Below the pieces are notes generated by a model that worked only from the letters and a program-made list of their open reading frames with translations, ran no database searches and was not told the DNA's origin. Positions 19,777 through 28,178 of a DNA stretch of 61,671 nt are shown one piece after another. The first letter of the stretch is position 1, and every line of letters starts with the position of its first letter. Source of the DNA: an uncultured Opitutaceae bacterium (GTDB lineage: Bacteria; Verrucomicrobiota; Verrucomicrobiia; Opitutales; Opitutaceae); the NCBI GenBank assembly GCA_964640465.1, contig CAZXHR010000002.1, positions 1 through 61,671 of the forward strand, written 5' to 3'. Made by a program: the position numbers and the translations under genes.

Positions 19777-19821
19777 GGCTGCCCAGGCTGGGATCGAACC
19801 AGTGACCAAGTGATTAACAGT
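19777..19821. repeat. attL: 45-bp copy of the 3' half of tRNA-Asn
   Basis: 44 of 45 nt are identical to 28104-28148. The one mismatch (19802 T versus 28129 C) would break the T-stem. Confidence 0.9.
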
Positions 19822-19930
19822 TTCTTGGTTTGCCTGTTCCTCCTTGTCCATCATTGTCCGCTTGTGGCCGTCTGAAAAGACGGTTTTACCTCTGAGAAAT
19901 CAACCGGGAGCACAAGACGGAAGGGAAAAG

Positions 19931-21289
19931 ATGATGACAACCGAGGACACCAAAAACCGGACAGTAACCGGACAGACAAACCGGACAGACAAAACCGCCC
20001 GCCCGGCCAAGACGCATCAGGACTACTGGAAAACCCGCCTGAAACACCGGTGCTACCAAGACCGGGAGGGCAAGACGGTGGAGATCCCGGAATGGCAGGT
20101 CCGCATGTTCCATCTCGGCCGCGAAGTCTGGTTCAACCTCGACACCGCCAACCAGACCGCGGCGGCCATCAAAGCCCGCGACATCTTCCTTTCCCTCGTC
20201 TCCGCCGGTTGGACGGCCACCTTGGCGAAATACAAGCCGGGCACGCCCGCCAAGGTCGGGGGCTGCACGCTGGGCGAGTTCCTTGCCGACGTGGAGAAGC
20301 GCAGCCACCTCAAGCCCGCCACCGTCCGCCGGTATGCCGTGAAGCTGCGCAAGCTCGTTGCCGACATCGCCAAGGTCGAAGCCGGGATGAAAGCCAAGGA
20401 GCGCCGCAAGAAGTTCGATTACGTGAACGGCGGGCACGCCGAATGGCTCGCCAAGGTCGACGGCCAATCGCTGGCGTTGCTCACCCCGGAGAGTGTCAGC
20501 GGCTGGCGCAATAGCTACGTGGCCAAGGCCGGCACCGATCCGGTTGAGCGGAAGTCGGCGGAGCGCTCGGCGGCGACCGTTCTGCGGTGCTCCCGTGCGC
20601 TCTTCTCCCGCGACGTGCTGGCCATGCTCAAGGTCATGCTGCCGCCCGATCCGTTTGCGGGCGTGAAGCTGAAGGACCCCGGCCCGCAGCGCTATCACTC
20701 CGACGTAAGCCCGGAATGGGTGCTGGCGTGCGCGGAACGCGAGCTGAAGGCCGAACACTCGCAAGAGTTCATGGCGCTTCTGCTCTGCCTGTGGGGCGGC
20801 CTGCGGCGCAAGGAGGCCGACACCCTGACTTGGGCGCAGGTCGATTTCGGCGAAGCGCAAATCCACATCCGCCGGACGGAGCATTTCGAACCGAAGACCG
20901 AGGAGAGTCAGCGCACGGTCGACGTGCCGCCGGCGGTGCTCGACGTGCTCCGCGGGTTCAAGAAGGACAGCACATCGGAGTTCGTGCTCGATGGCGGACC
21001 CGCCAACCCGGCGGCGACCTACGATTACTACCGGGCCGACTGCACGTGGCGCCGGTTACACGCATGGCTCAAGGACAAGGGCGTTTCGCAACAGAAGGCC
21101 ATCCACGCCCTACGCAAGGAGTCCGGTTCGCTCGTGGCGTGCGCGTTCGGGATCGAGGCCGCCCGCCAGCATCTCGGGCATGGGGACATCCGCACGACCT
21201 CCGCGCACTACGTCGAAAAGAAACGCCGGATCGAGGTGCAACTCCCGACCGGCGAGAAGGCGGGCCAACTGCGGACGATGGAGGGGTAA
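19931..21289 (+). CDS. int: tyrosine recombinase/integrase
   Basis: C-terminal catalytic boxes AIHALRKESGS and LGHGDIRTTSAHY. The ATG at 19931 is preferred; the ORF-track start at 19844 is possible. Confidence 0.85.
   Translation: MMTTEDTKNRTVTGQTNRTDKTARPAKTHQDYWKTRLKHRCYQDREGKTVEIPEWQVRMFHLGREVWFNLDTANQTAAAIKARDIFLSLVSAGWTATLAKYKPGTPAKVGGCTLGEFLADVEKRSHLKPATVRRYAVKLRKLVADIAKVEAGMKAKERRKKFDYVNGGHAEWLAKVDGQSLALLTPESVSGWRNSYVAKAGTDPVERKSAERSAATVLRCSRALFSRDVLAMLKVMLPPDPFAGVKLKDPGPQRYHSDVSPEWVLACAERELKAEHSQEFMALLLCLWGGLRRKEADTLTWAQVDFGEAQIHIRRTEHFEPKTEESQRTVDVPPAVLDVLRGFKKDSTSEFVLDGGPANPAATYDYYRADCTWRRLHAWLKDKGVSQQKAIHALRKESGSLVACAFGIEAARQHLGHGDIRTTSAHYVEKKRRIEVQLPTGEKAGQLRTMEG
19952..19980 (+). 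repeat. 29-bp arm-type repeat containing CCGGACAG units (left copy)
   Basis: aaaaaccggacagtaaccggacagacaaa is identical to 28009-28037. A third CCGGACAG unit follows at 19981. Confidence 0.8.
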
Positions 21290-21544
21290 CCCAAGCGCGC
21301 ATTGATTTCGGATACACTGGATTACCACCTAAGGGCGCGATTGACATCGCCTGCCCAAGTTGATTCAGGTCTGTCAGCGGCCCAAACCCGGGGCTGCTCC
21401 GGACACCTCCTGATTATGTGAGCCCGGAGCAGTAGGACACTTTGGTACGCGGAACACGCCCGTCGTGCCTCCGCTTGTGCGGATGGATTGAGACCGGGCA
21501 CAACCGCCACTCTGAATGATCGCCTCGCGATCAAGGAGTTTCCT

Positions 21545-21754
21545 ATGTCCGAGAATACGCCCGCCGTAAGTGAACGGCGGTTTCTGAAGAGCAAACAAGC
21601 CGCCGAGAGAATCGGCGTCTGCAAACGAACATTGATCCGATGGAGCGAGACCGGAGTACTTCCCCGGTACAAGATCGGGAATACGGTTCTTTGGGCTGAA
21701 GACGAACTGTTACGCCTCATCCAGAATGGACGAGTTGGAGGGCCTGCCCAATGA
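21545..21754 (+). CDS. AlpA/excisionase-type HTH DNA-binding protein
   Basis: 69 aa. The stretch KQAAERIGVCKRTLIRWSETGVLPRYKIGNTVLW is the typical HTH_17/AlpA pattern. Confidence 0.75.
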   Translation: MSENTPAVSERRFLKSKQAAERIGVCKRTLIRWSETGVLPRYKIGNTVLWAEDELLRLIQNGRVGGPAQ

Positions 21755-21936
21755 CCGCGGCAGAACAGGCACTGACCTTGCGGCGGATCGCGTCGCTCAA
21801 GGAGGAGATCGCCACGGCACAAGCGAAGATGCCGCGGATGCAGGAGGCGATCCGTACCCGCCAGCAAACCCTTGTCCGGCTTGAGGCCAGACTCGCCCTC
21901 GACGAGTTGCGCCCGGCCCGCTCCTCCCGTGAATGA
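21751..21936 (+). CDS. small coiled-coil protein, unknown function
   Basis: 61 aa with an ATGA overlap on the alpA-like stop. Predicted helical (LKEEIATAQAKMPRMQEAIRTRQQTLVRLEARL). Confidence 0.45.
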   Translation: MTAAEQALTLRRIASLKEEIATAQAKMPRMQEAIRTRQQTLVRLEARLALDELRPARSSRE

Positions 21937-27445: not shown

Positions 27446-27689
27446 GCGCACGCCCAAGGCTTCCGTGGGCCCGCGAGGCCAAGTCCTGCGGTTGGCGCTT
27501 GTCGGTGGCGTGGCGGCCGGATTCTCGGCTCGCGTGAGAGTGACTTACGAAAGTCCGAACTCGTTAGGGTATTGCGTCTATCAACCGAACAAGCGCGCAA
27601 GTCTCGGAAGAACCGGGCAGGCTCTTCGCAGCCAAGCGGCGCCCGAACTGCCCTTTTCGCGGTAGGAGGCCTACACCGATCCCGGGAGG

Positions 27690-28049
27690 GTGGCGCCGTT
27701 GTCCACAGCCCCGGCTGGCGGGATGGTAGTCGCCATGCCGCCATCACCCGCACCGCTTGCCGGACCCATCGCCGAGCCCGCCGGCTTGACCTGCCGGCGC
27801 TTCAGCAAGGCCAAGCCCATCGCCGCCCGGCTGGGCATCTGCTCGCGCACGCTCTTCCGTTGGGCGGATGCCGGGTTGATCGCCCGCCACAAGATCAACG
27901 CCCGCGTCGTCCTCTTCGATGAAACGGAGGTGGCGGCTTTCGTCGTGGCCGCACGGGTGGAGGCGGTGCGACCGGACAGCATGGCCGGCGAAGGTCGGAC
28001 AGCGTTCGAAAAACCGGACAGTAACCGGACAGACAAATCCCGTTTGTAA
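27690..28049 (+). CDS. excisionase/AlpA-type HTH DNA-binding protein
   Basis: KPIAARLGICSRTLFRWADAGLIARHKINARVVLFDETEV. Paralogous in pattern to 21545-21754. The true start may be the internal ATG near 27735. Confidence 0.65.
   Translation: MAPLSTAPAGGMVVAMPPSPAPLAGPIAEPAGLTCRRFSKAKPIAARLGICSRTLFRWADAGLIARHKINARVVLFDETEVAAFVVAARVEAVRPDSMAGEGRTAFEKPDSNRTDKSRL
28009..28037 (+). repeat. 29-bp arm-type repeat (right copy)
   Basis: Identical to 19952-19980. Additional (C/T)CGGACAG units lie at 27972 and 27995. Confidence 0.8.
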
Positions 28050-28062
28050 CGGAATCCGGATA

Positions 28063-28095
28063 GCAAAAACCTCTGAACCCTTTCGGATTCAGAGG
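28063..28095 (-). terminator. rho-independent terminator of tRNA-Asn (supplied by the element)
   Basis: Minus strand reads CCTCTGAAT-loop-TTCAGAGG followed by TTTTTGC, just 3' of the tRNA CCA end. Confidence 0.65.
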
Positions 28096-28103
28096 CTTGA
28101 AAT

Positions 28104-28178
28104 TGGCTGCCCAGGCTGGGATCGAACCAGCGACCAAGTGATTAACAGTCACCTGCTCTACCGCTGAGCTACTGGGCA
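28104..28178 (-). tRNA. tRNA-Asn (anticodon GTT), CCA encoded
   Basis: Folded by hand: acceptor TGCCCAG/CTGGGCA, D arm GCTC/GAGC, anticodon stem GGTGA/TCACT with loop CTGTTAA, T arm GCTGG-TTCGATC-CCAGC. Length 75 nt. The 3' 45 nt form attR. Confidence 0.9.

Follow-up and report, generated by a model that had tools for sequence, protein, structure and literature searches.

A candidate phage satellite of the PICI type in a tRNA-Asn gene of an uncultured Opitutaceae bacterium

The subject of this analysis was a mobile element in a 61,671-nt stretch of DNA from an uncultured Opitutaceae bacterium (contig CAZXHR010000002.1 of assembly GCA_964640465.1, positions 1 to 61,671; hereafter called the window). 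The element lies in a gene for tRNA-Asn, and we propose that it is probably, though far from certainly, an 8.3-kb integrative phage satellite of the phage-inducible chromosomal island (PICI) type. This reading is favored because the element forms a discrete insertion whose integration module is intact, encodes what appears to be a true small terminase (TerS), belongs to a family in which terS is constant, has moved recently, and possesses the parts of a PICI but no relaxase. Helper dependence, excision, packaging, and satellite function are inferred from this gene content. A verrucomicrobial host had been suggested in an earlier reading of the same DNA (the original prediction), and a ROK protein of the host was indeed found to cluster with proteins annotated as 'Opitutaceae bacterium'.

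The only tRNA gene detected in the window by ARAGORN was tRNA-Asn(GTT), at 28104–28178 on the minus strand. Repeat comparison showed that the 3′-terminal 45 nt of this gene are present as a pair of direct repeats, one at 19777–19821 (the attL core, minus strand) and the other at 28105–28149 (the attR core, minus strand, within the intact tRNA gene). The copies are identical at 44 of 45 positions, with T at 19803 and C at position 28131 of the tRNA copy; it is impossible for such a pair to have arisen by chance in 61 kb. Measured from repeat start to repeat start, the insertion is 8,328 bp long. To the features listed in the original prediction we can add the arm-type repeat ACCGGACAG, which occurs six times in the window, versus 0.5 occurrences expected by chance, with all six copies confined to the two att arms. 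Three are located 134 nt inside attL, in the P′ arm (19954–19993, plus strand), where they overlap the first int codons, and three within 134 nt inside attR, in the P arm (27971–28032, plus strand). These repeats are candidate integrase arm-binding sites; in the circular form, they would lie on either side of the core as P and P′ arm sites. A terminator hairpin borne by the element was read from the sequence in the attR arm (28066–28099, minus strand); the native tRNA-Asn terminator hairpin lies left of attL, at 19732–19764. Upon integration, the element's hairpin takes over from the native one.

An empty site, the unoccupied attB that the original prediction had asked for, was found in the Opitutaceae metagenome-assembled genome GCA_047602505.1 (locus L043), which has the matching ROK gene and tRNA-Asn but no insertion. 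There the native terminator hairpin and an old integrase remnant come immediately after the intact tRNA gene, and both sequences are found in the window left of attL (19467–19590, and the hairpin at 19732–19764). After 'virtual excision' of the element, the window aligned with L043 across the junction. At least six metagenome contigs, independent of one another, had copies of the element that were at least 99.7% identical and inserted at the same position, and a scan of metagenome DNA with the 5′ half of the tRNA gene identified two further loci, both holding other elements. We conclude that the element is not fixed at tRNA-Asn with degraded att sites, an outcome that the original prediction had named as damaging; its core is matched at 44 of 45 positions, and other lineages hold other elements at the site. 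By these comparisons, the element is a discrete, precisely bounded insertion whose integration module is intact and consists of a tyrosine integrase, an Xis-like helix-turn-helix (HTH) protein, the core, and two-sided arm repeats.

The vicinity of the site has a history of its own. The older tyrosine integrase remnant just outside attL (window 19239–19776, within a 188-aa open reading frame [ORF] at 19239–19805) was recognized by a C-terminal 'LRHGVNQRAVQEILGHSD' motif and weak XerD matches, and its counterpart adjoining the empty tRNA-Asn of L043 is a 185-aa Phage_integrase fragment. Because the remnant is kept beside the empty site, the site must have been used, and that earlier insertion must have decayed, before the present one. 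In a further lineage (L039, 3731–4371), the same terminator of the element type and a single block of arm repeats come after tRNA-Asn, and the sequence beyond them is unrelated; yet another element or remnant occupies the site. Relatives that are about 95% identical (L031–L037) were considered as empty sites and rejected: their synteny with the window stops at 19333, where tRNA-Lys(CTT) and a polysaccharide deacetylase gene, rather than the tRNA-Asn region, come after a DUF2292 gene. This tRNA-Lys belongs to a different event, a chromosomal rearrangement with its breakpoint beside two tRNA integration sites.

The gene content was determined by Pfam and PHROGs profile searches of the nine element ORFs, with PADLOC used in addition. 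Next to attL is the gene for a 452-aa tyrosine integrase (19931–21289, plus strand; Phage_integrase, 9.5e-10; phrog_1, 1.2e-27), in which the R...HxxR...H...Y residues are legible; compared with its homolog in L045, the ratio of nonsynonymous to synonymous substitution rates (dN/dS) was 0.13. An AlpA-like regulator of the HTH_17 family follows (21545–21754, plus strand; 69 aa from the ATG), with the ribosome-binding site AAGGAG upstream; it matched HTH_17 at 1.5e-9 and phrog_66, annotated as 'excisionase and transcriptional regulator', at 5.6e-10. The Pfam search gave no match of this regulator to PF05930 itself; PF12728 (HTH_17) is accepted as AlpA in the published model for PICMIs (PMC10803314). 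The alpA gene opens a coupled operon with the order alpA, orf61, the gene for a PrimPol replication protein (pri), and terS. The orf61 product is a 61-aa helical protein (21751–21936, plus strand). Its gene is ATGA-coupled to alpA and is kept in the variant element L007. The three junctions, read directly, are ATGA at 21751–21754, GTGAATGA at 21929–21936, and ATGA at 23314–23317.

Two further regulators are encoded at the far end. One is a 75-aa XRE-family repressor-like HTH protein (27218–27445, plus strand; HTH_3, 7.4e-11; dN/dS 0.12), and the other a 104-aa second HTH_17 protein (27735–28049, plus strand), whose homolog adjoins int in a sister element carrying a TrwC relaxase (L044–L046) and which is the probable excisionase (recombination directionality factor). 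The assignment of the latter as AlpA/Xis-like was upheld, if weakly: the phrog_66 match (1.9e-4) and the homolog speak for it, and the HTH_17 score of 22.6 bits falls below the cut-off of 27. In the divergent intergenic region between the cargo and XRE genes lies the palindrome ACGGCAtgtcgTGCCGT (27168–27184), with a half-site repeat at 27202–27210; it had no other match in the window, and is a candidate XRE operator. A scan for sigma-70 promoters returned no sites, the consensus probably being uninformative for the host phylum. No capsid, portal, large terminase (TerL), tail, lysis, or relaxase family was matched by any of the nine ORFs in Pfam or PHROGs. The original prediction thus fared well on most of its sequence-level claims: the tRNA-matched repeats, the integrase, AlpA-like, BT4734-like, small-terminase, and XRE calls, the three coupled junctions, the absence of structural and lysis genes, and the resulting PICI-type architecture (int, alpA, pri-rep, and terS) were all reproduced.

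The last gene of the operon encodes the TerS homolog (115 aa; 23314–23661, plus strand), ATGA-coupled to pri. It matched Terminase_2 at 31.4 bits (gathering threshold 26.1) and phrog_51 at 1.8e-13, so that the profile support called for by the original prediction was obtained for TerS, as it was for the primase (BT4734_N and PrimPol). A profile made from the element's own TerS family only matched the solved Pam5 TerS at 2.2e-5 and the SF6 TerS weakly. In the AlphaFold (AF2) model (pLDDT 84), an HTH is followed by a long helical hairpin. The top 11 Protein Data Bank neighbors in a fold search were all small terminases, including the SF6 DNA-binding domain (probability 1.0, TMt 0.82) and full-length SPP1-like, PaP3, NV1, Sf6, and E217 proteins. 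An exhaustive phmmer search of 1.8 billion representatives gave 399 relatives, mostly of 125–215 aa and aligned over residues 5–111; among the 41 nearest, 32 were Terminase_2 proteins without any other family match. Homologs are encoded directly upstream of TerL and portal genes in uncultured phages (L012 and L011, the TerS domain of L011 being fused or adjacent to TerL), and beside TerL in cultured phages at 39–40% identity, for example 40% in Edwardsiella phage MSW-3. The dN/dS of terS was 0.20–0.35. On the strength of the profiles and the predicted fold, we regard the protein as a true small-terminase homolog. The phage contig L011 was tried as a helper and rejected; its TerS N-domain is 59% identical to that of the element, but the likeness is limited to 54 N-terminal residues.

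The replication protein (462 aa; 21929–23317, plus strand) matched BT4734-like_N at 1.4e-24, the PADLOC models RTasVirE-PriCT2 and PrimPol at 2.9e-32 and 4.6e-28, and phrog_18375. Alignment of its N-terminal domain (BT4734_N, resembling the PrimPols of the archaeo-eukaryotic primase group) showed an invariant DxD (D101, D103), the motif SPSGxGLK, and H148. In the model, this alpha/beta domain is joined by a disordered linker (residues 199–228) to a helical domain, and the C-terminus is winged-helix-like. The protein was found to lack a helicase domain. Weak fold similarity was seen to LigD-pol, Prim-PolC, and winged-helix proteins, and a fold search with the full model returned nothing significant. 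The dN/dS of pri was 0.51. Within the part encoding the linker are 3.5 tandem copies of the 15-bp unit CCTGTACGTCTGAAC (22545–22595, plus strand), containing five CCTGTAC cores, with relatives having one unit fewer. The original prediction had described internal iterons; the repeats exist, and remain candidates for iterons or an origin, but the claim that they are origin iterons is weak; they encode a disordered linker of variable length.

A scan of a genome collection with the single Pri protein gave no match, and one with a Pri alignment gave one full-length match and otherwise mostly relatives of the N-domain only, from Bacteroidota and PVC genomes, so no close relatives of Pri can be named. 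Only BT4734_N was detected in the protein; DUF3987 and DUF5906 occur in distant relatives instead. Two other settings of Pri homologs were observed. At L026/L027 (7052–11356), a distant homolog (35% identity) is encoded beside a large terminase (Terminase_6N/6C), with a 192-aa protein matching the PHROG 'Rnase E', DUF4365, a Ser/Thr kinase, and an HSP70-like gene as further neighbors; this locus may be a different satellite or a defense island that carries TerL rather than TerS. Peat-type metagenome contigs (L017–L021) contain elements of about 10 kb adjoining tRNA-Gly(GCC), with an integrase, a weak HTH_17 protein, a replication protein 46% identical to Pri, and about ten small ORFs without a Pfam match, one of which was also checked in PHROGs and had none there. 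They look like another uncharacterized branch of the same replicon family.

Comparison with related loci showed that the element belongs to a modular family. Besides the arrangement in the window (variant a), a second form (variant b, L007) shares int, pri, and terS with the window but differs in its cargo and in having an additional 252-aa gene. In a third (variant c; L040, L002, and L008), the PrimPol gene is swapped for a DnaG-like primase (Zn-ribbon plus Toprim) and an AAA_25 helicase, and terS is retained; the cargo is DUF4328 or a 193-aa protein along with a Sel1/trypsin protein, the protease domain of which matched the RT-protease, PDC-M35A, and LmuA defense models of PADLOC. In the fourth (variant d; L041 and L042), a terS of 73% identity follows DUF6577 and AbiEii genes. 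Through these swaps of replication module and cargo, terS is the part that stays constant in the family. The terS cassette (window 23293–23662) is 100% identical in nucleotide sequence in L002/L008 and the XRE-Xis-attR block 96.7% identical, with the adjoining chromosome at 88–90%. Because the cassette is identical and the synonymous divergence (dS) between the window and L002/L008 is 0.05–0.07 for XRE/Xis versus 0.26 for the chromosomal ROK gene, we conclude that modules crossed recently between diverged hosts. The GC content at third codon positions (GC3) was 0.63–0.84 in the element versus 0.85–0.96 in host genes, and the dN/dS values given above show the element genes to be, by this estimate, under purifying selection. 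The L002 contig (Ga0498943_000303), at 1–8634, has a type I-G (I-U) CRISPR-Cas locus abutting a truncated terS element without int and alpA; it encodes a Cas5/6 fusion, a Cas4-Cas1 fusion, and Cas2, and is accompanied by DUF3323/DUF2399, WYL, and ORF6N genes.

The sister element occupies the same tRNA-Asn in another lineage (L044–L046 and L038; contig Ga0209098_1000030 and others). Upstream of it, in tandem, lies a remnant of the right end of another element. Its integrase is 87% identical to that of the window in nucleotides and 90% in amino acids, the core and arm repeats are the same, and its Xis-like HTH_17 protein is homologous. Its cargo comprises the TrwC relaxase, type I restriction-modification (R-M) genes (HsdM/S/R), an AAA_21 protein, DUF4357, and an MNT/HEPN pair. 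Sequence comparison revealed no shared regions beyond int, att, and Xis. Since a single int/att/Xis chassis thus carries a relaxase in the sister and a replication module with terS here, terS fills the slot of the 'mobilization module'.

If the element is a satellite, its cycle can be pictured as follows. Infection by, or induction of, a helper phage of the pac type would turn on the alpA operon, and Int together with Xis would cut out an 8,328-bp circle. The PrimPol/winged-helix protein would then start replication at an element origin, possibly the CTGTAC repeat cluster. TerS would bind a pac site in the element, probably in or beside terS, and recruit the helper's large terminase for headful packaging of satellite DNA into helper capsids. 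The packaged form would probably be concatemers in full-size heads, because no capsid-size gene is present. In a new cell, the element would integrate into tRNA-Asn, supplying its own tRNA 3′ end and terminator.

Several observations weigh against the satellite reading. A co-resident prophage with a cognate TerL, which the original prediction had suggested looking for, was not detected: tblastn with TerL and portal queries was negative, the window contains neither of these genes nor a prophage, and no helper phage was found. The attP junction was absent from IMG/VR, and a 26-mer from terS had no exact match there; in a search for circular or tandem forms by way of the Xis protein, all element-bearing contigs had the integrated form. 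Neither a capsid-redirection nor an interference gene was recognizable among the element ORFs, positions for the origin and the pac site could not be assigned within the element, and the XRE palindrome was missing upstream of alpA and int, so that no regulatory connection of XRE with the alpA operon was found. As for TerS itself, the Foldseek E-values were weak (0.06–2), only the first 76 of 141 Terminase_2 positions were matched, and the protein is short, without the C-terminal portion through which TerS of some phages contacts TerL.

A rival explanation is a replicative genomic island independent of phages, in which Int and Xis move the element, PrimPol replicates the circle, the TerS-like protein is only an HTH regulator or partition factor, and transfer takes place by conjugative mobilization in trans, vesicles, or transformation. 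Conjugation is evidently used in the family, in that sister elements on the same int/att backbone carry TrwC; only the N-terminal, DNA-binding half of Terminase_2 was matched; and neither a helper nor a packaged form was found. However, the element has no relaxase and shares only int, att, and Xis with the TrwC element, the whole predicted TerS fold (HTH plus helical hairpin) resembles full-length small terminases, and the nearest TerS relatives are terminases beside TerL. Retention of terS through replication-module swaps, under purifying selection, also argues against a merely regulatory role, and we consider this explanation unlikely, though by no means far-fetched.

Two other explanations are less likely still. 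A mainly defensive or accessory island, with relics of mobility genes, kept for its membrane-protein cargo and effectively immobile, would account for the defense-like cargo of the variants (AbiEii, and a trypsin-like domain common to RT-protease and Lamassu models), for the use of the tRNA-Asn site elsewhere as a defense hot spot (type I R-M, MNT/HEPN), and for the truncated L002 copy beside CRISPR-Cas I-G. It is hard to reconcile with mobility genes that are all intact and under purifying selection, near-perfect att sites with arm repeats on both sides, identical modules in diverged hosts, and a cargo in the window that itself matched no PADLOC defense model; we judge it improbable. A decayed prophage that retained only int, a replication gene, and terS is very improbable indeed. 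Phages commonly have terS and PrimPol domains, and an older integrase remnant adjoins the site, but the genes are tightly packed in an operon whose stop and start codons overlap, and this layout is found again in several variants that have exchanged modules, includes no structural-gene fragments, and is part of an element at least 99.7% identical across at least six metagenome contigs. A satellite of the PICI type therefore remains the reading that we prefer.

Between terS and XRE lie two minus-strand cargo genes, about 40% of the element, which were overlooked in the original prediction. Cargo gene 1 (23770–24576) encodes a 268-aa protein of no known family, in which one hydrophobic segment is clear and another was discerned by eye. 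Cargo gene 2 (24636–27083) encodes an 815-aa protein with about eight transmembrane segments and coiled and soluble C-terminal regions, and has the lowest GC content in the element; the GC content of the cargo region is only 58%. Neither protein had a match in Pfam, PHROGs, NCBIfam, or PADLOC, and for the 815-aa protein only two homologous clusters were found among 5.8 billion proteins. This variable stretch forms an accessory hot spot, and the cargo plausibly serves in anti-phage defense or superinfection exclusion. The two orphan membrane proteins are candidates for a new exclusion or defense function.

Elsewhere in the window, three minus-strand genes at 43490–46548 have an unusually low GC3 (about 0.66 versus about 0.9 in the host). 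Two of the three carry N-terminal methylation motifs of the type IV pilin kind, and the 580-aa product is without a family match; the group resembles a pilin or pseudopilin cluster that was acquired separately. A 324-aa homolog of Y1_Tnp (IS200-like or REP-associated tyrosine transposase) is encoded at 47959–48933, also on the minus strand.

Curated phage satellites come nearly all from Proteobacteria and Firmicutes. A PICI-type element in Opitutaceae, apparently active, would bring the PVC superphylum within the range of TerS-based phage piracy, and its terS cassette would offer a handle for finding the as yet undiscovered phages that infect these uncultured anaerobes. The family also displays an integration chassis that swaps phage-borne and conjugative mobilization modules, with cargo turnover after terS. 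We regard the element as a good candidate, well delimited, in an unusual phylum, and part of an informative modular family, with a presumed satellite function. A bolder proposal, offered tentatively and with less than even confidence, is that it represents the first TerS-redirecting satellite lineage of Verrucomicrobiota: a tRNA-Asn 'hitcher' family whose chassis carries either a TrwC module or a packaging module, the latter combining PrimPol or a primase-helicase with a minimal TerS cassette that includes its pac site, and whose post-terS hot spot holds new membrane-protein anti-phage systems.

Among known mobile elements, P4-like satellites resemble the element in having int, alpA, a primase, tRNA integration, and an accessory or defense hot spot, the last two being well-known traits of P4. 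In contrast, P4 uses cos sites and capsid-size redirection, not TerS, and Pfam and PHROGs searches of the element ORFs gave no homolog of Psu, Sid, Delta, epsilon, or the alpha-type primase-helicase; by its gene content the element is not P4-like. Nor does it appear to be a cfPICI, as Pfam, PHROGs, and tblastn searches of the element gave no capsid, portal, connectors, or TerL of its own. The relaxase-bearing integrative and mobilizable elements of the sister type (L044–L046/L038) share with it the integrase, the core and arm repeats, and the Xis-like HTH_17 protein, but carry TrwC, type I R-M, and MNT/HEPN genes and neither PrimPol nor terS, whereas the window element lacks a relaxase and a shared oriT-like region; it may have an orphan oriT.

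The original prediction had also called the architecture 'PICMI-like', and this did not hold. PICMIs of Vibrionaceae are located downstream of fis, have DUF3987/DUF5906 primases and an int-plus-alpA core, and lack terS, sid, and ppi; they were shown to be packaged as concatemers in full-size heads (PMC10803314). The element is likewise a small island with an early operon of int, alpA, a small ORF of no known function, and a primase with ATGA overlaps, a variable hot spot after the replication gene, and no capsid-remodeling genes, which makes concatemer packaging likely. Unlike them, it is inserted in tRNA-Asn and not at fis, has a primase of another family, and encodes TerS, so that on gene content it is not a PICMI.

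The suggestion that no such elements had been characterized in this lineage was likewise superseded. VEIMEs are uncultured 5–25-kb integrative elements from seawater viral particles, with an integrase, AlpA/excisionase, primase/helicase, and sometimes terS; some of these satellite-like elements were found integrated in marine Verrucomicrobia, and a Verrucomicrobia-associated module with plasmid-like replication genes was reported (PMC9618062). The element differs from VEIMEs in habitat and lineage (Opitutaceae), and in that they are defined by concatemers recovered from virus particles, whereas it is known here from sequence alone.

The closest likeness is to the PICIs, which include the SaPIs and Gram-negative members such as EcCICFT073 (PMC10085698; PMC6092414). 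The order int, alpA-type regulator, primase/replicase, terS, and then accessory genes is the same, as are specific att sites, a size of about 8–10 kb, the lack of tail, holin, and portal genes, and TerS as the presumed device for redirecting packaging. The differences are a host in Verrucomicrobiota, a BT4734_N PrimPol that has a winged-helix-like end but lacks a helicase, a minimal TerS of 115 aa, the lack of a capsid-morphogenesis or interference gene, and an XRE gene at the far end, whereas stl of SaPIs is divergent from the operon. SatelliteFinder defines PICIs by an integrase, a regulator (an alpA, merR, or stl homolog), a primase-replicase, a capsid-morphogenesis gene, and TerS, and forbids tail, holin, portal, and head-tail connector genes; those lacking one of the five components are allowed as Type B, as in SaPIs, and the median size is 9.5 kb (PMC10085698). 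More than 99.9% of PICIs detected by SatelliteFinder are from Proteobacteria or Firmicutes. In the element, an integrase, regulator, and TerS are present, the primase-replicase function is supported by the BT4734_N, PrimPol, and phrog_18375 matches, no ORF matched a capsid family, and none of the nine matched a forbidden gene in Pfam or PHROGs. Scored by the published definition with Pfam, PHROGs, and PADLOC profiles, the element is most likely a Type-B PICI, with four of the five core components present and every forbidden gene absent.

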